Of a DNA stretch of 64,000 bases, positions 1 through 63,738 are shown one piece after another; position 1 is the first letter of the stretch; each line of letters starts with the position of its first letter. The position numbers and the translations under genes were made by a program. The notes beneath the pieces were generated by a model. That model was not told the DNA's origin, made no database searches, and saw only the letters and a list, made by a program, of their open reading frames with translations. The stretch spans positions 1 through 64,000 of IMG/VR virus record IMGVR_UViG_2936390555_000003; one strand, 5' to 3'. This stretch comes from a virus. Lineage: Duplodnaviria > Heunggongvirae > Uroviricota > Caudoviricetes.

Positions 1-993
1 CTATTTGTAGGTCGGTAGCACATTAATAGCTTCAATAAGTTGCTCTTTGGTCTTATGCGTGTATACTGAATCATCTACGTCACTCCCTGCATGACCGATT
101 ATTCTTTGAATGATAACCTTGTTCACGTTAGCGTTGTTCAGCATGGTCTCGCATGTATGTCTTCCGTCATGCGGTGTATGCTTTTGGAGACATGGTATTC
201 CGCTATTCTTCCAGCGGTGCTCCCTAAAATTTGACGTTGACATACTAACGAAAAGTTCCTTATCGCTCTGGTATCTCTGGATTATTGGCTTTATGGCATC
301 ATGAATAGGGATAACCCTGTCCTTCCCAGCTTTCGTTTTAATACCACCAATCATATAGTCCTCATGTATGTTAGAGTTTTTAAGGGTAAGCAATTCGCCA
401 ATTCTCATTCCGGTGAATATCAGTATCAGAGCCATGTCAGCTGTAAAGCCTCCTTCGTGTTGCCATAGTTCATGTATTTCTTCTGGAGAGAACGGGTAAT
501 GCAATGTTGACTTGTCTACAGCCTGGGGAGTTAAGGCATCCGCAAGGTTTGTTGAGGTATAGCTATTCATCATGGCAAACTTGTATAGCCCTTTGATTGC
601 TGCCTTTAAAACCTGGGATACCGATGGAGTAGTGCTATCCATTATCAATTGCAAATCATGTGCTGTCACATGTTTAAACTTGTGCCTGTGTAATGGAGTT
701 AGTTTTCTGAGCGATGCCTTATATGATGCTGAGATATCCTTTGAAGATGCCTTGTAATCCAGGAACTCCTGAACTACTTCGCCGAATGTCTTCTTGTTGC
801 CAGCAAGATACTGTGGTTCACGGTGGTATATAGCGAGGGCATCCAATCCTTCCTGGCGTGTCCTATAGTAGCCTATAGGTTCCCTGTCCACCTTGCCTTC
901 TGCGTTGATGCCATGCGATACCACAACTATCCACGGCTTCCTGCGCTTGCCTGAGAGCTTATAGACACTTCCGTATCCATTAGGTAATCTCAT
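1..993 (-). CDS. int: phage tyrosine integrase
   Basis: 330-aa ORF with catalytic-domain motifs (FTGMRIGELLTL Arg box; HDGRHTCET H-x-x-R; GHAGSDVDDSVYTH with the Tyr nucleophile). Sits beside the Xis-like and repressor genes. Its stop codon is TAG (cta at 1-3). Confidence 0.9.
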   Translation of the reverse strand: MRLPNGYGSVYKLSGKRRKPWIVVVSHGINAEGKVDREPIGYYRTRQEGLDALAIYHREPQYLAGNKKTFGEVVQEFLDYKASSKDISASYKASLRKLTPLHRHKFKHVTAHDLQLIMDSTTPSVSQVLKAAIKGLYKFAMMNSYTSTNLADALTPQAVDKSTLHYPFSPEEIHELWQHEGGFTADMALILIFTGMRIGELLTLKNSNIHEDYMIGGIKTKAGKDRVIPIHDAIKPIIQRYQSDKELFVSMSTSNFREHRWKNSGIPCLQKHTPHDGRHTCETMLNNANVNKVIIQRIIGHAGSDVDDSVYTHKTKEQLIEAINVLPTYK

Positions 994-6442: not shown

Positions 6443-6678
6443 TGAACAAGATGTGTGAGGTGGCGCACTTGCTTGGCCTGGAGCTGGGGCAATTCTTCAT
6501 GATAGATGTGTTCGAGGGTGTATTTTGTATCACGGAGCATGGCCTCGTAAACGTAATCCTTAAAGGGAATGTAATTAACAATGAGCAGGGTGAGATATTA
6601 CAACGCTTGCTCTTGGGTGACTTCGAGATTACTCATGTTGCCAAGTGGACAAAGATTAAGGAGGGATATCATGGCTGA
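6442..6678 (+). CDS. hypothetical protein (78 aa)
   Basis: ATG overlaps the upstream stop (TGATG). Operon context. Confidence 0.5.
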   Translation: MNKMCEVAHLLGLELGQFFMIDVFEGVFCITEHGLVNVILKGNVINNEQGEILQRLLLGDFEITHVAKWTKIKEGYHG

Positions 6679-7174
6679 TTTGTTTGATAATGTATATACG
6701 CACTGTAAGTCATTCAATAGTTCTGAATGTATAAACAATGGCGAAAGGTGTAAGTTCAGAGAAGGTGATGATGGTTGTAAAATAGAGAACATCACTGGTG
6801 AGGTACCGATACTCTGGGATGATGAAGATAGAGAGAGTATCAATAAGGTTCTCGCGGAGCACCATATCAGCATCGAAAATGACAATGGTATTGAGAACGA
6901 CAACAATGGCTACAGTACATCTCAGAAGCACTATATAGCCAAGTCTCCTATTGAGTTCATGCAGACTCTCATGAGCAAGGAGATGTTTGTTGGCTTCTGT
7001 ATTGGTAATACCGTCAAGTACCTGATGCGTGCGCCGTTCAAGGGACAGCTCAGGAGTGACCTTGATAAGGCTAGGCAGTATTCGTGGTGGGCATCGCTTG
7101 CCAGGAAAGGTAAAGTGGTTGACCCATCGGAGCCTGTACCCAAGGATTTCAAGACGAGGGTGTTTATATGTTAA
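6671..7174 (+). CDS. DUF3310-like phage protein
   Basis: RBS AAGGAGGGA before ATG 6671. Motifs YIAKSPIEFMQ...GNTVKYLMRAPFKG...DLDKARQY resemble the DUF3310 family. Confidence 0.5.
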   Translation: MADLFDNVYTHCKSFNSSECINNGERCKFREGDDGCKIENITGEVPILWDDEDRESINKVLAEHHISIENDNGIENDNNGYSTSQKHYIAKSPIEFMQTLMSKEMFVGFCIGNTVKYLMRAPFKGQLRSDLDKARQYSWWASLARKGKVVDPSEPVPKDFKTRVFIC

Positions 7175-7356
7175 GAAGTTTTATCATATTTGCAGTAATG
7201 GTTATCGCTGGTACATTTGTTTACCTGGTTGTAAATTACGCCAAGGGGTTTGGCAGATGTATCATGGATATAAAGAAGCGTTTTATGGATTCCATCTCTG
7301 ATGATGGAGTGCCGGAGAACATCAAGGTGACAAAGTTAAGGAGGACGAGAACATGA
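7168..7356 (+). CDS. small single-TM membrane protein (possible NfeD-like partner of the SPFH protein)
   Basis: 62 aa with hydrophobic N-terminus IIFAVMVIAGTFVYLVV. Overlaps the SPFH gene start by 4 nt. Confidence 0.5.
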   Translation: MLRSFIIFAVMVIAGTFVYLVVNYAKGFGRCIMDIKKRFMDSISDDGVPENIKVTKLRRTRT

Positions 7357-8213
7357 GTAACAATGGAAAAATTGGAATGACAGGTATTGCAGTGGCGATG
7401 ATGTTAGCCATCGGTCTTGGGGCAACGGCTTCATATAAGGTGGATCCTGGGTACGCCGGTGTTGTCTACAATATGGATGGTGGCCTTGAGGAGGAAACCT
7501 TGGGGCAGGGCTTTCACATGGTATTGCCATGGAAGAAGGTTATTGAGTATCCTGTAAGCACCGAGACTGTGTACTATACTAAGTCTAACGATGACGGTGA
7601 GCAGGTTGACAACAGCATTAATGTGAATACCAAGGATGGCAAGCAGGTAAATGTATCCGTGACCTACGCTTATCACATGGATGAAGCAATGCTTCCTTCG
7701 GTATTCGAGAAGTTCAGAGGTCAGAAGGCTTCCGCGATTGAGGCTGGCTACATGAAGAACGAGATGTATCAGGCGATTAACGAGGTTACCTCTCAGTATT
7801 CTCTGATGGAGCTGGTTGGCAATAAGCGGCCTCAGATTAACGAGGAGATTCTCAGGAAGTTCCGTAGTTCCCTTGAGCAGTACGGCATTATCATTGAGAC
7901 CTTCAATTTGTCCGATGTAGTTCCTGATGAGCAGACCAAGACTGCAATTCAGGCTGTGGTAGATGCGCAGAACGCACTGGAAAAGGCAAAGGTTGAAAAG
8001 GAACAGGCTGAGGTTGAAGCTGAGAAGGCAAGGGTGGCAGCTAAGGGCAAGGCTGATGCTGAAATCATTGAAGCCGAAGGTACAGCCAATGCAAATGCAA
8101 AGCTCCAGCAGAGCCTGACACCGCTTATCGTTGAACAGCGTAAGCTCGAAAAGTGGGACGGTAAACTCCCTGGTATCGTTGCCGGTAATTCAAATCTTTT
8201 GATTCAGCCATAA
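7353..8213 (+). CDS. SPFH/band-7 (prohibitin/HflKC-like) membrane protein
   Basis: N-terminal TM segment. SPFH core VDPGYAGVVYNMDGG...GFHMVLPWKKVIEYPVSTETV. C-terminal Ala/Glu/Lys-rich coiled coil. Confidence 0.8.
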   Translation: MSNNGKIGMTGIAVAMMLAIGLGATASYKVDPGYAGVVYNMDGGLEEETLGQGFHMVLPWKKVIEYPVSTETVYYTKSNDDGEQVDNSINVNTKDGKQVNVSVTYAYHMDEAMLPSVFEKFRGQKASAIEAGYMKNEMYQAINEVTSQYSLMELVGNKRPQINEEILRKFRSSLEQYGIIIETFNLSDVVPDEQTKTAIQAVVDAQNALEKAKVEKEQAEVEAEKARVAAKGKADAEIIEAEGTANANAKLQQSLTPLIVEQRKLEKWDGKLPGIVAGNSNLLIQP

Positions 8214-9020: not shown

Positions 9021-9124
9021 ACTGTATCAATAAGTGTGATGCGTGGGAGGCAGAGTATTGTTGCTTGTTATGTGAGTATCTTGGTGGTGGCAATTGTGAT
9101 GATTGTGACCCGATGGAAATCTGA
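8993..9124 (+). CDS. 43-aa Cys-rich mini-protein (10 Cys; zinc-ribbon-like), tentative
   Basis: Strong RBS GGGGAGGGAGACGA before ATG 8993. Translates to MEDDDSPCVNCINKCDAWEAEYCCLLCEYLGGGNCDDCDPMEI. Overlaps the rusA 3' end by 28 nt. Followed directly by the RBS of the next gene. Confidence 0.35.
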   Translation: MEDDDSPCVNCINKCDAWEAEYCCLLCEYLGGGNCDDCDPMEI

Positions 9125-9135
9125 GGAGGAATTGT

Positions 9136-9333
9136 ATGTTCTATGAAAGCATGATAAAACTGAAAAAGAAGAACATCGAGGCCGTAATTAAAATCCCGTT
9201 TGATACCAGGGATGAAGCGTTGGTTGGGTTCAATAGGTTACTTGATATGCTTGATGAAAGCCACGATGATACCTTGAAGGTATTGAATAGCTTTGCTGGC
9301 AATGGTGTTAAGGAGGAGTCGCATGTTTTATGA
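9136..9333 (+). CDS. hypothetical protein (65 aa)
   Basis: RBS CTGAGGAGGAATTG before ATG 9136. Confidence 0.5.
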   Translation: MFYESMIKLKKKNIEAVIKIPFDTRDEALVGFNRLLDMLDESHDDTLKVLNSFAGNGVKEESHVL

Positions 9334-10100
9334 CAATGAAATCTCCATGGGTATAATGGAGAAGAAGTATTTACAGCCAGGGGAAACCCCAGAGCAGTGG
9401 CTGGACAGGGTGGTGTCCATATTCTCCCCTGATTTGCAGGATGATATAAGGTATGCCATTAGTCAGGCTGACTTCTTGCCAGCAGGGAGAACCTTGGCTG
9501 GCGCAGGACTCAAGGGAAAGCGTAAGATGAGTACGTCTAACTGCTATATTTGTCCTTCACCAAAGGATAACATCGAATCCATATTTGATACAGCGAAAAT
9601 GGTTGCTCGCATCAGTAGCTATGGTGGTGGCTGTGGGATAGCATTGGATAACTTGAGACCGAAGGATGCACTGGTAAACAATAGTGCAAGAACATCAACG
9701 GGTGCCGTGAGCTTCCTGAATCTCTTTGATACGACAGGCTCAATTATTGGCCAGGCTGGAAGACGTGCAGCTTTGATGGTTGGTTTACGCTGTGACCATC
9801 CTGACATTTATGAGTTCCTTCGTGTCAAGGAGAATAACGAAAAACTTGCTTCCATGAACATCAGTATTAAATTCACTAATGAATTTATGGAGGCGGTGCG
9901 TGACCATAAGAAATTCCATCTTCACTTTGAATCCGTGCATGAAAACATTGAGCGTGACATTGATGCCGCTGAATTTTTTGAGGAATTCTGCAAGGTCAAT
10001 GCTGACTGGGGAGACCCAGGGTGCATCTTCATCGACAGGGTAAGGAGCTACCACTTGCTCAGTGGTTATCCTGAGTATCAGATTGATATATCCAATCCGT
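9323..10100 (+). CDS. nrdJ: class II (adenosylcobalamin-type) ribonucleotide reductase NrdJ, exon 1
   Basis: RBS AAGGAGGAG before ATG 9323. RNR motifs SYGGGCGIALDNLRP and GQAGRRAALMVGL. Exon ends ...ISNP + T at 10100, where the listed ORF hits the first intron codon TAA. Confidence 0.8.
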
Positions 10101-10309
10101 AAAGTGTATGCGGCGTTGCATGGTAACATGCAAATGAAAATCCCCTCTGAATAACTTGGAAGCCCTAACGTAAAGCCGAGGGTGACAGGGAGCAAGGGTA
10201 ATGCCAGCTTGAGAGAAGTAAGCGAGGGGACATCCCATGTGGATGGTGCGGTACTCCAGACGACAAACACTGTTATACCAGGTGTGCTATGGAAACATAG
10301 TGTCGTAGG
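10101..10309 (+). ncRNA. ORF-less group I self-splicing intron interrupting nrdJ at the NPC(thiyl-Cys) codon
   Basis: Exon 1 ends ...AAUCCGU with U before the splice site. The internal guide GCGG (10110-10113) pairs with CCGU (G·U at the splice site). P2 hairpin TTGCATG-GTAA-CATGCAA. P3-like pairing CCCCTC(10143-48)/GAGGGG(10225-30). Terminal G at 10309. Splicing T|GT restores the Cys codon and the frame (NPCAEYYGIGGNSCNLGSINL). Confidence 0.6.
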
Positions 10310-11724
10310 GTGCAGAATATTATGGTATAGGTGGTAACAGCTGCAACCTTGGTTCCATCAATCTTTATAACATGATTGATGACAAGTTCACTCGCGAAGC
10401 GCATGTGAACTATGAACGCTTGGGAACTGTCGTAAACATTGCTGTTCAGGCACTCGATGAAATCCTTACTTATGGCTATGGTATGCAGCCATTAGATCTG
10501 AATCGCAAGGTCATTGATGACTGGCGCAGCATAGGACTTGGTATCTTCGGTCTTGCGGATGCACTGGTTGCTATGGGTATACGTTATGGCAGCAAGGAGT
10601 CAATTGAATTTGTCTCTGATGTCATGGAACACATCATGCTCTATGCCTTGGAAACATCATCAGACCTGGCTCATCACTATGGCTCATTCAGAAAGTATGA
10701 TTTCGAGAAGATTTGCGAGTCTCAGATAATCAAAGCTTTCCCTTACATGAGGGATAAAATAGAAATGGATGGGCTCCGTAATGGCTCACTGATTTCCATC
10801 GCTCCAACAGGCACTATTTCCCTGTTTGCCGGGCGGTTCACTGGTGGTGTGGAGCCTATGTATCAGGTGGCATACGAGAGAACCTCCCATTCCACTGAGG
10901 ACGAAGGAAAGACCTTCTTTGTCTATGCTCGTGGCGTGGAAGACCTCCTGAAATTCCATGGGATTGACCCTCAGAAAATCACGGTGGACGAGATTAAGGC
11001 ACGGTTCCCATTTGTTATTGAGTCTCATGAGGTGCCATGGAAAGAGCGTGTGGCTCTCCAGGGTGTAATGCAGGATTACGTTGACAACTCCATCAGCTCC
11101 ACGGTAAACCTGCCTAACAGTGCAACATGGGAAGATATTCGTGACATCTACATGTTTGCATGGGAGCAGGGGCTCAAGGGAATAACCGTGTTCCGTGATG
11201 GGTGCAAGCGTGGCAATATCCTTGGCGTATCTAAGGATGAGCCAGTTGAGTCAATGTATAACATGGTTGAACCGCTGAAGCGTGGCAGTACCTATCGCGT
11301 TGATGGCTCCACATTCAAACAGCGGACAGCCTGTGTTCCTTCCATGTATGTCACGGTGAACAAGTCAGACACAGGCGACCTCATGGAGGTATTCACTAAT
11401 GCCAGCGGTGGTTGTCAGGCCAACATTAATACCATTACTCGCCTGGTTTCCCTTTTACTACGCGCTGGTGTCAAGCGTGACATTGTAATCGAGGAGCTTC
11501 GTGAGAATCAGTGTCCTGCATGTCAGGCTCTTAGAAGGCAGGGAAAATCCCTTTCCCTGAGCTGCGGTAATGCCATTGCAGATGCCATGACAGCCATGCT
11601 GGACGATGAATCTACCGTGGAGCATGATGGCTACCTGGTATGCCCTGAGTGTGGCAAGCATACCCTTAGACCAGAGGGTAAATGCTTTACATGCAGTAAC
11701 TGTGGCTACAGCAAATGTGATTGA
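10310..11724 (+). CDS. nrdJ: NrdJ exon 2
   Basis: In-frame continuation CAEYYGIGGNSCNLGSINLYNM..., with the same C-x10-CNLGSINL spacing as NrdJ active-site loops. C-terminal zinc ribbon CPECGK...CFTCSNCGYSKC. Confidence 0.8.
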
Positions 11725-11734
11725 GGTGATTTGA

Positions 11735-11905
11735 TGGGACATGTTTATAACCTAGGATTAAATGTAGCATGTGACGTTTCCGTGTATGCGGAGAACGCCA
11801 GTGAAGCCAAGGAGCAGGCAGTGAGCCAGGTTGAAAGTGGCTTGGTAGACCTTGGGTTCGATAATCCCGATGCTGATGTGGTGAGCATTGAAGCAGACGA
11901 TTGAA
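11735..11905 (+). CDS. hypothetical small protein (56 aa), tentative
   Basis: ATG 11735 lies 8 nt after the nrdJ stop. Weak RBS (GAGGTGATTTG). Confidence 0.3.
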
Positions 11906-12178
11906 GAACGCATCAAAGCACTGCGACTACAAATCATGATTCATAGCATTATCTATTATGAAATGGATAACAATATAATCAGTGATGCTGAGTGGTCAAA
12001 GCGTGCTATGGAACTCGTGGAATTGCAGAGGAAATACCCCTCTGTATCCACGGTGTTCGATGAAGCGTTCAAAGATTTTGATGGTAGCACTGGTTTCCAT
12101 TTGCTGCGCTATGCAGACGATAGAGCCAGGGGCAAAGCGAAATATTTGTTAAGAATAGAAGGGAAGTTAAGAGAATGA
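11888..12178 (+). CDS. hypothetical protein; N-terminal helical pattern faintly resembles NAD-ligase domain Ia (tentative)
   Basis: Alternative (TTG) start in the ORF track. Pattern I..L...I..H...YY..D...ISDAEW..L..EL..L. Translationally coupled (ATGA overlap) to the ThyX-like gene. Confidence 0.4.
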   Translation: MKQTIEERIKALRLQIMIHSIIYYEMDNNIISDAEWSKRAMELVELQRKYPSVSTVFDEAFKDFDGSTGFHLLRYADDRARGKAKYLLRIEGKLRE

Positions 12179-12729
12179 TTAAGACATTAGGCGTATATAA
12201 TCTTGAGGAAGCACTCGCATCCGCTGGACTTCCGATGTGCTTGCATATTGATGCGTTAAAAGCATCGGAGGGCAGGGGAAAGAAGCTTGGTCATGCCCCT
12301 GTCGGCAGTGGTCACGATAAGTTCCTTCGCGGTATCATGGTGAGCTTCAGGATACAGGCTCCACGGTATTTCTACCAGCAGCTTGATACCTACCATTTTG
12401 TTGAGAGCGTAAGCAGTCAGTCCACCATGCATTGCGTTGATGAGTTCAATCTGAATACAATGCTTGCCCCGGCTACTGACCAGATAATTGCAACGAGATT
12501 CAAGCAGCTGGTTCAGATGTACAAGGATGGCAGGATTCCATTGTCCGTGGTAAAGGCATCGCTTCCGGAGGGGCTCATGCTTTACCGTGACTGCGTGACC
12601 AATTATCAGCAGTTGAAAACCATTTACAAGCAGCGCAGGAATCACAGGCTCACTGAGTGGCAGGAGTTCTGTGATTGGATTGAGACTTTACCTATGTTTA
12701 AGGAGTTGGTATTAGATGAAATTGGGTGA
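12175..12729 (+). CDS. divergent ThyX-like (flavin-dependent thymidylate synthase fold) protein lacking the canonical RHR / S-x-R-Y residues
   Basis: Aligns by eye to the ThyX core: VSFRIQAPRYFYQQLDTYHFVESVSSQSTMH versus [31 protein letters not shown]. The C-terminal block also aligns (GRIPLSVVKASLPEGLMLYRDCVTNYQQLKTIYKQRRNHRLTEWQ versus ThyX [43 protein letters not shown]). Nucleotide-metabolism context between nrdJ and dut. Confidence 0.5.
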   Translation: MIKTLGVYNLEEALASAGLPMCLHIDALKASEGRGKKLGHAPVGSGHDKFLRGIMVSFRIQAPRYFYQQLDTYHFVESVSSQSTMHCVDEFNLNTMLAPATDQIIATRFKQLVQMYKDGRIPLSVVKASLPEGLMLYRDCVTNYQQLKTIYKQRRNHRLTEWQEFCDWIETLPMFKELVLDEIG

Positions 12730-13273
12730 TTATGTAGAGGTTACTAATGGAGATTTCGCAGGGAAGCAGGGGTGTGTTACTGCTATCGAAAGCAATAACA
12801 TGGTCCGCATTGATGACAAGTATTGGTTCGTTGCTGAAGATGTGAAGCCAATTGCTCCCATTGTTGAAGTGAAATACTTCGATAAGCGTTGCAAGCTTGA
12901 GCAAAATGGTGATTGGATTGACCTCAAGGCAGCAAAGGATTTCCATTATCATGCAGGGGATGCCCTCATGATACCGCTGGGAGTGGCAATGAAACTTCCA
13001 AAGGGGTACGAAGCTCACATGCTTCCGCGTTCCAGCACATTCAAGAGATATGGTATTATCATGACCAACTCCATGGGTATTATTGATGAAGCATACTGTG
13101 GCGATGATGACCAGTGGCATTTCCCTGCGTGGGCATTGCGTGAAGGTCGCATCAAAGCCGGTTCCAGGATTGCACAGTTCCGCGTGGTAAAGCACCAGCC
13201 AGCATTGCATTTTGCTGAGACTTCAAGGCTTGGGTATAAGAACCGCGGTGGCTTTGGGAGCACTGGCAAATGA
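12716..13273 (+). CDS. dut: dUTP diphosphatase with ~55-aa N-terminal SH3/KOW-like extension
   Basis: Trimeric dUTPase motifs AGDAL (I), PRSSTFKRYG (II), GIIDEAYCGD (III), GSRIAQF (IV), NRGGFGSTGK (V). The N-terminal KLGDYVEVTNGDFAGKQGCVTAIE resembles the GD-V-L repeat of the minus-strand paralog family. RBS AAGGAG upstream. Confidence 0.85.
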   Translation: MKLGDYVEVTNGDFAGKQGCVTAIESNNMVRIDDKYWFVAEDVKPIAPIVEVKYFDKRCKLEQNGDWIDLKAAKDFHYHAGDALMIPLGVAMKLPKGYEAHMLPRSSTFKRYGIIMTNSMGIIDEAYCGDDDQWHFPAWALREGRIKAGSRIAQFRVVKHQPALHFAETSRLGYKNRGGFGSTGK

Positions 13274-15615: not shown

Positions 15616-16314
15616 TTACTCAGCCCCCTTCATGAAATCTGCGATAACCTTAATTTCCTCTGGCATCCGCTCATACGGTGGTAACTTTCCAGTCTCAGCA
15701 CAGTTGTCATACAGACTGATGATTTCTTTGACTGTCTTTTTGATGAGTGCATGGTACTTATTCGTGCCGAGCAAATCCAGGAGCTTGTCGCCATACTCAA
15801 CGATACCATCATGCACCCAGTAGAAATCCGTGAAATTATCCAATGGCTTACTATTGGAACCCATCTGCAGGATTTCCAGGGCTGACAGGTTATCAACCGC
15901 ACTATCGAAATGCTTGGCGGTGCAAATGAATCCATCGAACCCATGCCTATCAAGGTCAACCACTTCCAAGTCCAGGTACTTATCGATGACATCGAACTGA
16001 GCACTTGGTTTTGAGAACTCAATGCAAGTACACAGGATGTCAAACAGCTTATCCTGCTTATCGCCGGCCAGCTCAAATACAAGCGTGTGTCTCTCGAATA
16101 CGCATTTATATTCATGGAAGCCATCGAACCTCATGACCTTAGTAATGTCATATTCACCGAATGTTCTGTGATTCAGTGTATCATCATAATAATCATGAGA
16201 AAAATCATTGAGGCTAATGCCTATCTGCCTATCACAGGACACAACAGTATCACTTGCAACCACACAGGTGTCTCCATTTTTCAGCGTAATAATATCAGCA
16301 TTCTTGAATTCCAT
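15616..16314 (-). CDS. hypothetical acidic protein, GD-V-L repeat paralog family (one repeat)
   Basis: N-terminal MEFKNADIITLKNGDTCVVASDT...ISLNDF is paralogous to ORFs 16318..16752 and 17161..17646. Confidence 0.6.
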   Translation of the reverse strand: MEFKNADIITLKNGDTCVVASDTVVSCDRQIGISLNDFSHDYYDDTLNHRTFGEYDITKVMRFDGFHEYKCVFERHTLVFELAGDKQDKLFDILCTCIEFSKPSAQFDVIDKYLDLEVVDLDRHGFDGFICTAKHFDSAVDNLSALEILQMGSNSKPLDNFTDFYWVHDGIVEYGDKLLDLLGTNKYHALIKKTVKEIISLYDNCAETGKLPPYERMPEEIKVIADFMKGAE

Positions 16315-16317
16315 AGC

Positions 16318-16752
16318 TTATTCCTCCCCACCAAGCAATTCCATTTTCCCATCAATGAGCCTATAGTGCTCACATATATCCAGGTCTTCATCCCATGTGT
16401 TCATGTACCCCTCATACTCAGTGAGCTCAATCCACTGGCAGTCCTTGGGAAATATAATGCGATTACCGGCAATTACACCCCTGTCACCATCTTTGAGTAC
16501 AACAATGTCACCGCACTCAAGGGGCTCACCACGCTTGAACACAGTGGTGTAGCACTGCTCATAGCTTTCCTTTCTCTTGATTTCCATGATGTCCCACTCG
16601 ATGCAAATCTTGCATGTGCCATTATCCCTGAAATCCTCCAGGGAAATCCAGTCCCAGTCACCGCGCTCATCGATTCTTACGATGGCATCATCAGATACCA
16701 CGCCCTCAGTCTTGTCCCTGAATACAACTATGTCTTTCTGTAAGAATTCCAT
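16318..16752 (-). CDS. hypothetical acidic protein, GD-V-L repeat paralog family (two repeats)
   Basis: Repeats KDIVVFRDKTEGVVSDDAIV and CGDIVVLKDGDRGVIAGNRII. Begins MEF...ISLEDF like ORF 15616..16314. Confidence 0.6.
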   Translation of the reverse strand: MEFLQKDIVVFRDKTEGVVSDDAIVRIDERGDWDWISLEDFRDNGTCKICIEWDIMEIKRKESYEQCYTTVFKRGEPLECGDIVVLKDGDRGVIAGNRIIFPKDCQWIELTEYEGYMNTWDEDLDICEHYRLIDGKMELLGGEE

Positions 16753-20045: not shown

Positions 20046-20831
20046 TTACTTTTCCTCCTTGTAAATCCTTTTCATGATTGCTGCTACGTCATCCTGGTCA
20101 ATATTAAGATACCTCATTGTAGTTCCAGGATTTTTATGTCTCATTGCAGTCTGAATGTACTGCAATTCAACGCCATGTTTTGACAGTGTGTTCGCAAAGT
20201 ATCTGCGGAAAGAATGTGGGTGATAGGGGAGACCACATTCCCTGCAAACCTTACTGACCATGAATTTCATACCCTCCAAGGTCATCGCTGCCTTCTGCTG
20301 GGTAACAAATAATTCATCCAGGTCATACTTGCGTGTGTCCAGGTATTCATCAAGTGACTCACGCACCCTATTATGGATAATGGGAACCACGGCATCCCGT
20401 TTCCCTTTTGTATTCCTGAGCAGGATTTTATTCCCAGATAAAATATCTCCGAGATGCAAGTTAGCAACCTCGGAGATACGGAGACCATTATATGCCATGA
20501 GGGCAAAGATTAATTTGTCTCTTGGGCGTTTCAATACACCCCATATTTTCTCAACCTCCTCATCGGTGGGGCAGGGCTCAATAGGATTATTACAACGATA
20601 ACCCTTGATTATCCTTGCCTTGTCCTTGGATAATTCACCGTAATAATCAAGCGCACTTTTGAGTACCGTGAGGTACATCTTTTTCGATGTGCCCTTGATG
20701 CTGTCGTCTGCAATGAACTCAATAATTTCCTCTTTGCTGCCTGTCTTGAATTTCTTCAAGGCATTACAGTAGTTCTCGTAAGTGTTCGGTGAACGTGTCC
20801 TCCGGATTTCCTCAAGATATTCTTTAAACAT
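20046..20831 (-). CDS. second tyrosine recombinase (short, XerC/D-like, 261 aa)
   Basis: Catalytic motifs AYNGLRISEVANL (Arg), HPHSFRRYFANTL (H-x-x-R), AMRHKNPGTTMRYL (His...Tyr). Confidence 0.85.
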   Translation of the reverse strand: MFKEYLEEIRRTRSPNTYENYCNALKKFKTGSKEEIIEFIADDSIKGTSKKMYLTVLKSALDYYGELSKDKARIIKGYRCNNPIEPCPTDEEVEKIWGVLKRPRDKLIFALMAYNGLRISEVANLHLGDILSGNKILLRNTKGKRDAVVPIIHNRVRESLDEYLDTRKYDLDELFVTQQKAAMTLEGMKFMVSKVCRECGLPYHPHSFRRYFANTLSKHGVELQYIQTAMRHKNPGTTMRYLNIDQDDVAAIMKRIYKEEK

Positions 20832-30783: not shown

Positions 30784-30871
30784 GGAGCCATGGCAGAGTG
30801 GTTTATTGCAGCGGTCTCTAAAACCGATGATGTTCACGCATCCGTAGGTTCAAATCCTACTGGCTCCGCCA
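30784..30871 (+). tRNA. amber-suppressor tRNA, serine type: tRNA-Ser(CUA), class II with 16-nt variable arm
   Basis: Cloverleaf: acceptor GGAGCCA/UGGCUCC; U8; D-stem GCAG/UUGC with G18G19; anticodon stem CGGU/ACCG; loop CUCUAAA (anticodon CUA at 30818-30820); variable arm UGAUGUUCACGCAUCC (GAUG/CAUC stem); T-arm GUAGG-UUCAAAU-CCUAC; discriminator G73; CCA encoded. SerRS identity elements present (G1-C72, G2-C71, A3-U70, C11-G24, long arm, G73). Anticodon loop equals bacterial tRNA-Ser(CGA) with G35 changed to U. Confidence 0.8.
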
Positions 30872-31032
30872 TAAGAACAATAAGCTGCCATGCATCCCCA
30901 TTGTCCGGGGAACCGCAAGCGCAGTACTAAAGCATAAGAGGGCATGTGAGTCATGAATCACGAATGGTAATCCATTCAGAGTATGGGTTGCAAAACGGCT
31001 ACATGAGGTTCGCCCTTACTCATGTATCACAT

Positions 31033-31107
31033 GGTTCGTTAGCTTAGTTGGTAGAGCATCTGACTTTTAATCAGAAGACCTGGGTTCAAATCCTAGACGA
31101 GCCACCA
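31033..31107 (+). tRNA. tRNA-Lys(UUU)
   Basis: Acceptor GGUUCGU/ACGAGCC; D-arm GCUU-AGUUGGUA-GAGC; anticodon stem UCUGA/UCAGA with loop CUUUUAA (anticodon UUU); T-arm CUGGG-UUCAAAU-CCUAG; discriminator A; CCA encoded. Confidence 0.8.
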
Positions 31108-60882: not shown

Positions 60883-62327
60883 TGCAGAATTATACAGAGA
60901 TTTCAGAGAATCAGACATTGAGGGATTCGAGGAGCTTGCTTCTGAATAACGATAAGACTGCAATGAGCAACAGCAGTGGCGAGAGTTTTCCAACGCAGAA
61001 CCTTCAGATTGGCATGTTCTGCTATAGGACTGACGAAAAGAAACTGTATCAGCTCATGGACAACATGCCTACATGGAAGCTCGTAGTTGACATGAGTGGC
61101 GATGGGGCCAAGGTTGCTTAGGTTGATAAAGATGGCGTGAACGAGGATGCGTTGCAGGACGAGGCTGTCACTGAAAACAAAATTTTAAACAAGGCTGTTT
61201 CCACGGAAAAGCTTGCGGACGAGGCTGTCACCGGCAAAAAGGTGGACATCCTGAGCCTCAGGAGCTATATTGTTGCAGCTACTCCGCGGTACTATGCGCG
61301 CGCCGAGGTTCCGGCTGCATCAGCAAGGACTATCATTAGTATCCCGTCTGACATTTGGATAAATATCAACAATAATGGTTACGTTATTAATGGTGGAACG
61401 GATATTGACATTAACGTGAGTGACAATTGGGACAATGCAACCTATGCTACCGCATAGAATCGTAAGGGCAAGGATTTCTATATGTATGCTTGCATTGGCG
61501 ACAATGGGATAAAGCTTGTGCTTTCCGCTAATAGCACTGTTCCAACTGGGTACAATGCCAACACATCTCGTAAGATTGGCGGTTTCCATTGCCTCTGCGC
61601 TAATGTTGGCTCCATCACTGGACATACACTGTCTGGCTACGTTGCTGGTGACATTATCCCTGGCTCCGTGTGGGACCTGCTTCACAGGGCAAAGAGTGAT
61701 AACGTTGGTATGGTTTATCATGAAGGACTTGGCATATGGGCTGACATCTATGGGGCATCATGGGATGGCTCCAAGCTTACGAGCGTATACGGCGGAATCT
61801 TTGCCGACGGAGAGAGCGCAAAGAGGTTCCATGGAGAGTTGTTCGTTGAGGAGTTTGGCAAGATTGGTAAGCGTTTGATTAGCCGTGCAGAGTTCCAGGT
61901 GCTGGCAAAGGGAAGTAATGAATGTACCAATATATCTGGTTCTGCTGACCCAGGTACTACAGGTGGGCATGTTGATACCGCTGGTCGGCGCATGATTTCT
62001 AATTTTGGTCTTGAGGATTGCTGCGGAGCAATGTGGTCATGGACAAGTGATTTGCTTGAGAATTATCCTGGGAGCGTATGGAACTCCGCGAACTACTACT
62101 TGGATAGCTATGCTTGGCAAGAGAGGTCTGTGTATAATCCGGATATTGATTCCCAGAAGTATGGTTCCTGCTTTGGCTTGCTTCGTCGGTGTCTAGTCGG
62201 TGGCGATTGGAGCGTTGGTTCGTATTGCGGTTCCCGTGCGGCGGATTGTGACAATTTCTCGTCTGACCGCTTTGCCGCTTTCGGTGGGCGTGCGGTGTCG
62301 GAGCCGAGGGTTGTTCATCTCGGCTAA
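60882..62327 (+). CDS. tail fibre / receptor-binding protein, DGR target (C-terminal C-type-lectin/FGE-like variable region); 2 in-frame TAG (61119, 61455)
   Basis: ORFs 60882.., 61137.. and 61482..62327 share one frame. N-terminal tail-fibre repeats (AVTENKILNKAVSTEKLADEAVTGKKVD). C-terminal ...WSWTSD...CLVGGDWSVGSYCGSRAADCDNFSSDRFAAFGGRAV contains the variable region. Confidence 0.7.
62175..62302 (+). repeat. DGR variable region (VR)
   Basis: 128 bp aligned to the TR with 17 mismatches. Every mismatch falls at a TR adenine (G or T in VR). Confidence 0.85.
62301..62327 (+). promoter_or_regulatory. GC-rich hairpin immediately 3' of VR (GAGCCGAG-ggttgttcat-CTCGGCT), DGR IMH/hairpin-like element
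   Basis: Perfect 7-bp inverted repeat at the VR 3' boundary, as found downstream of VRs in characterised DGRs. Confidence 0.5.
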
Positions 62328-62592: not shown

Positions 62593-62715
62593 TATGGGGG
62601 TACAATGGTGTCGAGCAACCCTCAGCTGGGCTTATGAACCTTCCTGCAAAGGAAAATACACAACAGGGGAAGGAGTGTGGCTAGTAATGAAAATGAACGT
62701 CATAGAGCCTCCGTT

Positions 62716-63738
62716 ATGAAACGTCATGGCAATCTTTTTGACCTTATTGCCAGCAAGGAAAACTTATTGGTAGCATTTAATAAGGCTAAGAAGGGAAAGT
62801 CACGGCAAAGGAAGGTTAATGTGGTTGCCAGGAACTTGGATAGAATGCTTAGTGATTTGCATGAGAGCTTGGTTTCTGGTAACTACCATACCTCTCCATA
62901 TAAAACGAGGACTATATATGAGCCAAAGGAAAGGCTTATATACATATTACCATTTTATCCAGATAGAATAGTACATCATGCAATTATGAATGTACTTGAG
63001 CCGGTCTGGAATAACTTAATGTATTACCATAGCTACGCTTGTCGTAAGGGCAAGGGGATGCACCGTGGCAGTACCTTATGTATGGCGTATGTAAAGCGAT
63101 ATAAATATGTGTTGAAATGCGATGTGTCTAAATTTTATCCGAGCATTAATCATGAAGTGCTAAAGAAAATCATTAGGAAGAAAATTAAAGACGGTAGATT
63201 ACTTATGCTTCTTGACGAGATTATTGATAGCACTGGCACACCAACAAATGTACCTATAGGAAACTATCTTAGTCAGTGGTTTGGCAATCTTTATCTTAAT
63301 GAGCTCGATGAAATGGTCAAGCATAAGCTTGGTGTTAAATCGTATATTCGTTATAGCGATGATTTCGTATTGTTTAGCAACAACAAGTAGGAGCTGCATG
63401 AATGGGCGAGGAGAATAAGGGAGTTCCTTGCATCAAAGCTTTGCTTGCGCATGAGTAAGTGCGATGTATTTCCGGTGAGTAGAGGGGTTGACTTCCTTGG
63501 ATATAGGCATTTTCCAAATAAAATCCTGTGTCGCAAAAGGACGGTGAAGTCGTCCAAGAGGCATGTGAAGGAAACCATGCATCTTCTTAGAAGCGGACGT
63601 ATATCAAAGGAGCAAGCATTAAGCAAGTTGGCAAGTGTAGTCGGATGGATTAAGCACGCCCAGTGTCACAACCTGTATAATGCTATGGAGATAGACAGGA
63701 TAAAAAAGGAAGTGTTAGAATATGAAGAAATTCAGTGA
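62716..63738 (+). CDS. DGR reverse transcriptase; 1 in-frame TAG (63388-63390)
   Basis: Start MKRHGNLFDLIASKENLLVAFNKAKKGK (alternative GTG 62677). RT motifs incl. YSDDFVLF (YxDD). The frame continues after TAG (...FSNNK-TAG-ELHEWARRI...GVDFLGYRHF...) to TGA 63736-63738. Confidence 0.8.

Follow-up and report, generated by a model that had tools for sequence, protein, structure and literature searches.

Thymidylate synthesis is essential for DNA-based life. According to a 2020 survey of enzymes that form 5-methyluridine (m5U), no enzyme specific to the synthesis of deoxythymidine monophosphate (dTMP) is known besides ThyA and ThyX (PMC7226160). In ThyX, two arginines are reported to polarise uracil (R90 and R174 in Thermotoga maritima; PMC7226160), H53 stacks on flavin or folate (PMC11940539), R78 faces flavin N1/C2=O (PMC11940539, PMC6514825), the Arg-His-Arg (RHR) motif binds the phosphates and ribityl chain of flavin adenine dinucleotide (FAD) and Y91 caps the site (PMC11940539, PMC6514825, PMC7226160); Arg174 of the Helicobacter pylori enzyme contacts deoxyuridine monophosphate (dUMP) (PMC6514825). 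Here we describe X, an open reading frame (ORF) at 12175..12729 (+) in a stretch of 64,000 nucleotides from a virus of the Caudoviricetes (positions 1 to 64,000 of IMG/VR record IMGVR_UViG_2936390555_000003; hereafter, the window). X, a name used for this ORF and for its protein family (phrog_6721), runs from an ATG at 12175 to a stop at 12729 and encodes a ThyX-fold protein of 184 amino acids (aa). Sequence, predicted structure and gene neighbourhood together make it moderately probable that X is a divergent thymidylate synthase, dependent on flavin and methylene-tetrahydrofolate (methylene-THF) and with a remodelled nucleotide site, that would convert dUMP to dTMP.

Fold, family and active-site residues

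ThyX, or flavin-dependent thymidylate synthase (FDTS; Pfam PF02511 Thy1, COG1351), is exemplified by T. maritima TM0449 (PDB 1O26) and H. pylori ThyX (3AH5); it is a homotetramer with bound FAD in which conversion of dUMP to dTMP requires NAD(P)H and methylene-THF. The alpha/beta fold of ThyX is confirmed for X at the level of a predicted structure. An AlphaFold2 (AF2) model built with the family alignment as input has a mean predicted local distance difference test score of 94.6 and a predicted template modelling (TM) score of 0.87, and a Foldseek search of the PDB with it returned 154 matches at E<=1e-3, the top 50 of which are all ThyX (best match H. pylori 3ah5_A, E 5.7e-9, TM 0.75). In BFVD, the first two matches are uncharacterized gut-phage proteins (29% and 24% identity), followed by annotated phage ThyX at E ~1e-5. 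Structural comparison thus bears out the ThyX fold that a preliminary description of the window, made by eye from the letters, had assigned to X. The same description had given the position of the ORF and the peptides TYH (residues 72-74) and STMH (residues 83-86), all of which are present, and a length 36 residues below that of T. maritima ThyX, which also holds (184 versus 220 aa, with the ThyX sequence verified against PDB 1kq4).

Of the two blocks of X aligned to ThyX by eye, the N-terminal one is recovered weakly by sequence methods. BLASTP pairs X residues 32-69 with T. maritima ThyX 38-75 at E 0.004 (one comparison), and hhalign gives E ~0.01-0.015 and a probability of 3-4% against a single ThyX or a 33-sequence ThyX alignment, with a probability of 3% and E 0.015 when the family is compared with the ThyX alignment. 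The C-terminal block was detected by no sequence method; it runs in the same order as the fold match and the helix-strand pattern (E134-143/H144-154 against ThyX E154-163/H164-174). Family members score no more than 17 bits against a ThyX hidden Markov model (HMM), and no ThyX was found among PDB sequences by phmmer with X or by a 48-sequence family profile. NCBIfam has no match to X; its sole library match is phrog_6721 (E 2.8e-50), whose annotation carries no function.

The family is large and has escaped annotation. An exhaustive profile search at E<=1e-3 found 3,831 clusters at 50% identity, 2,822 of them at 1e-10, and a homologue search gave 1,856 at 90% identity, of which the 120 listed all lack both a Pfam domain and an informative name. 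X occurs on at least 582 viral contigs of IMG/VR and, in GTDB species genomes, at 567 loci or more; it is also carried by 23 phage records in INPHARED, all from phages of anaerobes: Fusobacterium phages Fnu1, FNU2, FNU3 and phiKSUM, Clostridioides difficile phages of the phiCD211-like group, Clostridium perfringens phage XP41-N3 (38.6 kb), Desulfovibrio phage ProddE, and phiCTP1. Every annotated copy is a 'hypothetical protein', and annotation by Pfam, NCBIfam or PHROG fails to reveal the family despite its thousands of sequence clusters. Copies 95-96% identical to X (L007 and L095) place the phage of the window on a contig that was binned to an Anaerovibrio metagenome-assembled genome and in a 76.6-kb uncultivated virus genome. 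Family size, conservation and the exclusive fold match rule out a chance ORF or a chance similarity, and full-text literature searches yielded no description of the family. X gives no Thy1 match and lacks the RHR...S pattern, and it has the fold and part of the active site; it is therefore placed within the ThyX superfamily rather than as ThyX, of which it is a deeply divergent, previously unannotated branch.

Some members are longer or duplicated. Five proteins of 396-468 aa (P0262, P0267, P0296, P0310 and P0247) carry an in-frame HNH endonuclease module of ~250 aa in a variable loop (residues ~22-33), which corresponds in position to the ThyX folate loop; the module also has an apparent AP2-type DNA-binding segment and shows no clean intein boundaries. 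A further protein of 456 aa (P0241) is a tandem duplication in which the first copy has lost SSQSTMH. Interpretation of the long members as FolD fusions or inteins was rejected in favour of these HNH insertions and the tandem duplication. Fnu1 gene 151, which overlaps the phage FolD gene, was likewise rejected as a hidden member (hhalign probability 0.2%, no Pfam match). Two copies of X (L111 and L123) lie ~175 kb apart on one 349-kb 'viral' contig (IMGVR_UViG_3300024999_000029), which may be the genome of a megaphage, a concatemer, or cellular DNA that was misclassified.

Conservation was computed over 206 aligned family members. The family signature is GxGHD, (R/T)YHF, SSQSTMH and NYxQLKTxYxQRxxH(K/R)LxEW, and ~34 positions are at least 95% conserved, mainly polar or charged: L38, G44, G46, H47, D48, L51, V56, Y73, H74, S80, S81, S83, T84, M85, H86, Y116, P131, G133, T142, N143, Y144, L147, K148, T149, Q153, R154, H157, L159, W162, F165, C166, W168, L172 and P173. 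Residues were mapped onto T. maritima ThyX by an offset of +6 over residues 33-74, anchored on the BLASTP, hhalign and HMM alignments, and of +20 over residues 131-154, anchored on matching strand-helix elements. The G44-S-G46-H47-D48 motif (12304..12318, +; G44 97%, G46 98%, H47 96%, D48 98%) falls on ThyX G52-H53-E54, with hhalign, BLASTP and the HMM all placing GHD on GHE, so that H47 pairs with H53 and D48 with E54. Q69, at ThyX Q75, is E or Q in 98% of members combined. T72-Y73-H74-F75 (12388..12399, +) is the positional equivalent of ThyX RHR(I), with the consensus R-Y-H-F/W: the residue at R78 is R in 86% and T in 13% of members, Y73 (at H79) is 99% conserved, and H74 (at R80) 95%. The helix block T142-N143-Y144...K148-T149...Q153-R154...H157-R158-L159..W162 (12598..12660, +) lies over ThyX N163...N169...R174...H178, the flavin/uracil site; N143 (at N163) is 97% conserved, K148 and T149 are 99%, and R154 (at R174), Q153, H157 and W162 are 100%. 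Elsewhere, K127 stands at R147, where most members have V or L, and Q145 stands at R165 (Q 56%, R 26%).

With H47, N143 and R154 conserved at 96-100%, the machinery for flavin, folate and uracil is retained in part, and equivalents of H53, N163, R174 and, for most members, R78 suggest use of flavin and folate. The nucleotide site appears to be remodelled, with the equivalents of R80, R147 and the R90/Y91 loop replaced by H74, SSQSTMH and K148. The replacement loop, S80-S81-Q82-S83-T84-M85-H86 (12412..12432, +), contains no Arg and is nearly invariant (S80 95%, S81 99%, Q82 82%, S83 100%, T84 97%, M85 99%, H86 100%). It occupies the place of the ThyX active-site loop (ThyX 81-97) in any of three registers (ungapped, with a deletion based on secondary structure, or with a 3-residue insertion by the HMM), and its Ser follows position 72 by 8-11 residues in an ambiguous register, against RHRxxxxxxxS in ThyX. 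The pairing of STMH with ThyX SGRY that had been drawn by eye is one of several possible and is not established, although the peptide itself is present. We take R78, R80 and R147 to be the arginines of the dUMP 5'-phosphate site of T. maritima ThyX, a set that X lacks: R78 corresponds to T72 in the window, R80 to H74, and R147 to K127 in the window subclade. By our own numbering of H. pylori and Mycobacterium tuberculosis residues, H. pylori Arg174 is presumably T. maritima R174, and R78, R174, S88 and R90 are presumably the equivalents that hold dUMP.

Absence of the canonical RHR and S-x-R-Y residues, as claimed for X beforehand, is upheld by T72-Y73-H74, by SSQSTMH and by the Pfam search. 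TYH is the triad of X itself and not the family state: the 86% of members with RYH keep the first Arg, and TYH marks a 13% subclade that has gained Arg64 and Lys127. In this T72 subclade (27 members, window included), R64 and K127 are each present in 96%, both being at 0% in the R72 group, and K49, R52 and E132 co-vary with it. Positive charge thus appears to have been relocated from position 72 to Arg64 and Lys127, not lost, which argues for a maintained anion-binding active site.

Gene neighbourhoods in cells and phages

In the best 80 of at least 567 GTDB loci, a full-length FolD gene lies immediately upstream of X on the same strand in 74, usually overlapping it, with a 4-nt overlap as the commonest junction. 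Both FolD Pfam domains were verified on one locus (L008), and precomputed matches exist for another (L001). X is thus translationally coupled to folD in cellular genomes. These loci belong mainly to uncultured gut Bacilli, labelled 'Mollicutes', Candidatus Enteromonas, Onthovivens, Alloenteromonas and Coprobacillus CAG:826. A 1.06 Mb record designated 'chromosome: 1' carries one of them, and the genes around folD-X are of the housekeeping type (secA, prfB, uvrB, secG). The pair is kept while its outer flanks vary: 11 different gene families precede folD and 18 follow X.

Phage copies are set among genes for deoxynucleoside triphosphate (dNTP) synthesis. Neighbours within 10 kb were counted in 80 IMG/VR loci taken from the at least 582 contigs, 74 of which have a called X ORF. 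A ribonucleotide reductase (RNR) of any class is near X in 42 of the 74, a dUTPase in 36, and a guanylate-kinase-like gene in 15 (at a median of 585 bp); all but one NrdG match share the strand of X. The order RNR-X-dUTPase is found in the window and in its closest subclade members (L093 and L094), where NrdD/NrdG replace NrdJ. In ProddE, phiCD211 and Fnu1, X also lies inside replication and nucleotide blocks. FolD itself is rare in phages (54 of 50,697 records), with Lak megaphages and large Enterococcus phages among its other carriers. A phage FolD gene abuts X in one viral locus (L099, FolD at 9107..9967) and is 5 kb from it in another (L135, FolD at 15829..16662), and Fnu1 (gene 150, L092 6907..7743) and phiKSUM (OR492276.1 54361..55137) carry FolD as well as X. 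The phage-type FolD is 40-43% identical to cellular FolD, which indicates that no recent capture of a cellular operon took place.

In the window, X is part of a + strand block in the order gp2.5-like single-stranded DNA-binding protein, primase-helicase, exonuclease, DUF3310 'nucleotide kinase' homologue, SPFH protein, RusA, split class II RNR, Nlig-Ia, X and dUTPase. The operon setting in nucleotide metabolism is as the preliminary description had it, and its placement of X between nrdJ and dut is right on one side: dut follows immediately with a 14-nt overlap, and a 96-aa Nlig-Ia ORF and a 57-aa ORF separate X from the split nrdJ. The dUTPase gene (12716..13273, +; Pfam dUTPase E 5.9e-13, phrog_135 dUTPase) starts within the 3' end of X and encodes an N-terminal KOW-like extension (KOW E 1.3e-4). 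Upstream are a class II-type, nrdJ-like RNR in two ORFs (9293..10102 and 10372..11724, +; Pfam Ribonuc_red_lgC on both and TSCPD on the second, phrog_84, frame analysis) and, farther away, a DUF3310 protein (6581..7174, +; Pfam DUF3310 E 1.8e-14) that matches the PHROG 'nucleotide kinase' families phrog_236 and phrog_1689 and is a possible deoxynucleoside monophosphate (dNMP) kinase downstream of dTMP synthesis.

Neither ThyX nor ThyA was found alongside X in the sequence searched. With the ThyX HMM and phmmer queries of T. maritima ThyX and Escherichia coli ThyA, no match was obtained in the window or in the complete genomes of XP41-N3, ProddE, Fnu1, phiCTP1 and phiCD211, nor in 1.4 Mb of viral flanks (80 viral loci) or in the 20-kb flanks of the 80 cellular loci; as positive controls, these queries pick up 2,682 and 4,525 phage records. 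No association of X with dihydrofolate reductase (DHFR) turned up, in analyses that included no search aimed at DHFR. Because X is tied to FolD and dNTP genes where no ordinary thymidylate synthase is seen in the sequence examined, it most likely makes dTMP. In this phage, the class II RNR would supply deoxynucleotides, the downstream dUTPase would supply dUMP, X would convert dUMP to dTMP with flavin and 5,10-methylene-tetrahydrofolate, and the dNMP-kinase-like protein may phosphorylate dTMP further. In small-genome gut Bacilli, methylene-THF would come from FolD, co-translated with X.

Several points weigh against a thymidylate synthase. No Pfam family matches X even at E<=1, Thy1 included, and the residue map is based on alignment of sequence and secondary structure. 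RHR is replaced by RYH or TYH, S-x-R-Y is absent, and the SSQSTMH loop has neither Arg nor Tyr. The R174 counterpart, R154, is 100% conserved, and none of the three loop registers puts a conserved Arg at R90. At the R80 and R147 positions, most members have His and Val or Leu, and ThyX-like dUMP binding can therefore not be assumed. FAD binding is uncertain since the positions aligned with R165 and T55, which by our numbering match FAD-phosphate ligands reported for the H. pylori and M. tuberculosis enzymes (PMC6514825), are not conserved. The genomic evidence is also limited: a canonical thymidylate synthase occurs in at most ~14% of phage records, which makes its absence from X-bearing phages statistically weak; absence of ThyA and ThyX from cells refers to 20-kb flanks and not to whole genomes; and the 74 folD-linked loci form one related clade (57-99% identity, 26 clusters at 80%) and are therefore non-independent. 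Set against these points, the coupling to folD, the linkage to RNR, dUTPase and dNMP-kinase-like genes and the lack of ThyA or ThyX alongside favour an ordinary thymidylate synthase role performed by an unusual active site.

Competing activities and other features of the window

The altered residues had been read beforehand as pointing to a substrate that is different or non-phosphorylated, to a part in regulation or to a new kind of activity. As preferred conclusions these are disfavoured by the folD coupling, the links to RNR, dUTPase and dNMP-kinase-like genes, and the lack of co-occurring ThyA or ThyX; another substrate is the main rival. X could be an active flavin- and folate-dependent one-carbon (C1) transferase of the ThyX superfamily with another substrate or product, such as uridine monophosphate (UMP, as in PolB), deoxycytidine monophosphate (dCMP), a nucleoside, a nucleoside triphosphate, or a pyrimidine modified with 5-hydroxymethyl or another group. 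We consider this possible and rather unlikely. It would account for replacement of the R80, R147 and R90/Y91-loop positions by H74, K148 and the invariant SSQSTMH, and it fits with the DNA cytosine methyltransferase gene directly upstream of X in Fnu1 and the Dcm genes in 13 of the 74 viral loci. However, the housekeeping site beside folD amid secA, prfB, uvrB and secG in Bacilli genomes of ~1 Mb argues for a core product, phage and cellular copies have the same invariant residues and so probably a common substrate, a scan of 37 window ORFs showed none recognisable as a hypermodification gene, and the adjoining dUTPase fits dUMP. A bolder version, which we put forward tentatively and hold to be doubtful, makes the family a ThyX-fold flavoenzyme with new chemistry or substrate and no thymidylate synthase at all: with a Ser/Thr/His loop standing in for the arginine cluster, it would for example transfer C1 units to a pyrimidine that is unphosphorylated or phosphorylated in another way, or to a nucleotide of cytosine or uridine, and the folD partner would supply C1 units for an unrecognised metabolite or base in gut Bacilli and phages of anaerobes.

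Methylation of uracil within a polynucleotide (tRNA, rRNA or DNA) rather than in a free nucleotide is improbable. It would explain why Arg is lost at the ThyX 5'-phosphate positions, where the arginine cluster is degraded, and the folD linkage fits it as well. We know of no ThyX-fold enzyme that acts on polynucleotides, and the 184-aa X has no extra nucleic-acid-binding domain in the AF2 model. The folate- and FAD-dependent RNA m5U methyltransferases TrmFO and RlmFO do exist in Gram-positives and mollicutes, and are lost or diversified in some mollicutes, but they form an enzyme family separate from ThyX (PMC7226160). The phage settings of X, moreover, are dNTP-supply modules (RNR, dUTPase, dNMP-kinase-like) and not tRNA modules, and phages as small as XP41-N3 carry it. 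X might instead be a ThyX-fold protein without catalysis: a pseudoenzyme, a sensor of nucleotides or folate, a factor that regulates RNR or dUTPase, or one that inhibits host ThyX. This would be consistent with the missing canonical catalytic motifs and with the decoys and regulators of nucleotide metabolism that phages encode. Such a role is very improbable, given that polar, pocket-type residues (His, Ser, Thr, Arg, Lys, Gln, Asn, Tyr) are very strongly conserved over the 3,831 clusters, that positive charge has been relocated in a compensatory manner, and that vertical housekeeping inheritance with folD in reduced genomes is unexpected for a phage-style decoy.

Other features of the window deserve mention. 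A stand-alone Nlig-Ia ORF of 96 aa (11888..12178, +; PF22745 E 1.4e-27, phrog_6466), in which the Ia domain from the N-terminus of NAD-dependent DNA ligase is the only ligase domain present, is translationally coupled to X through a stop that overlaps the X ATG by 4 nt; short ORFs with the annotation 'DNA ligase' are found in phiCTP1 and phiCD211 too. The first nrdJ-like ORF stops at '...IDISNP*', precisely at the catalytic NPC(G)E motif, and the frame picks up ~210-270 nt on ('..GAEYYGIGGNSCNLGSINL..'). No group I or II intron was found in the interrupted gene with Rfam, at the gathering threshold or at E<=1, and the interruption may be a small unclassified intron, an interruption of another kind or the mark of a pseudogene. 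The N-terminal extension of ~60 aa, with its KOW/Spt5-like matches, gives the dUTPase an architecture that is unusual for this enzyme. Three unrelated phages with X share a gene of the SPFH/prohibitin family in their replication modules (window 7353..8213, +; ProddE gene 010; Fnu1 gene 143). A reverse transcriptase gene (62677..63390, +; phrog_1423 E 9e-92) adjoins a tail protein gene (61482..62327), and a diversity-generating retroelement is suspected there. The window also contains two tyrosine integrase genes ~19 kb apart and two tRNA genes (1..993, -; 20046..20831, -; 30784..31104, +), and may take in two or more integrated elements or the edge of a prophage. Megablast turned up no deposited phage nearly identical to this one.

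Comparison with known uracil-methylating systems

If X is the true thymidylate synthase of small-genome gut Bacilli and of many phages of anaerobes, metabolic reconstructions could wrongly call thymidine auxotrophy in the former and surveys of phage auxiliary metabolism would miss X in the latter. It would also mean that ThyX chemistry can proceed with one of its two "essential" arginines, which bears on the debated mechanism of ThyX and on the design of ThyX-directed antimicrobials. If another substrate is the true one, X would represent a new flavin- and folate-dependent enzyme activity.

PolB, the ThyX-paralogous C5-methylase of UMP and dUMP in polyoxin biosynthesis (PDB 4P5A), is located in a Streptomyces antibiotic gene cluster and is matched by a ThyX sequence query at E 3.7e-34. 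It is reported to use the same arginine-based activation of uracil as ThyX (PMC7226160); the X family has neither the ThyX-type motifs nor an antibiotic-cluster context. TrmFO and RlmFO combine methylene-THF and flavin chemistry in Gram-positive and mollicute lineages, with a cysteine nucleophile and RNA substrates (PMC7226160). The lineages and the chemistry, as proposed for X, are common to both, whereas X does not belong to the TrmFO/RlmFO family and lacks its catalytic Cys. ThyA performs the metabolic step proposed for X, and its phage operons follow a similar logic with dUTPase and RNR, but it is described as evolutionarily unrelated to ThyX, uses a cysteine nucleophile (PMC7226160) and has no sequence match to X.

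ThyX is the closest of these systems. Its secondary structure is collinear with that of X, in which strand beta-1 is missing and helices are shorter, and the counterparts of H53, Q75, R78 (in most members), N163 and R174 are conserved in the X family. Phage ThyX is placed among dNTP-synthesis genes, like X, which in the sampled sequence was not seen alongside ThyA. The X family differs from ThyX by a signature of its own, comprising invariant SSQSTMH, K148/T149 and Q153/H157/W162, by residues other than Arg at the R80, R147 and R165 positions in most members, and by translational coupling to folD in cellular genomes, which is a feature of X.

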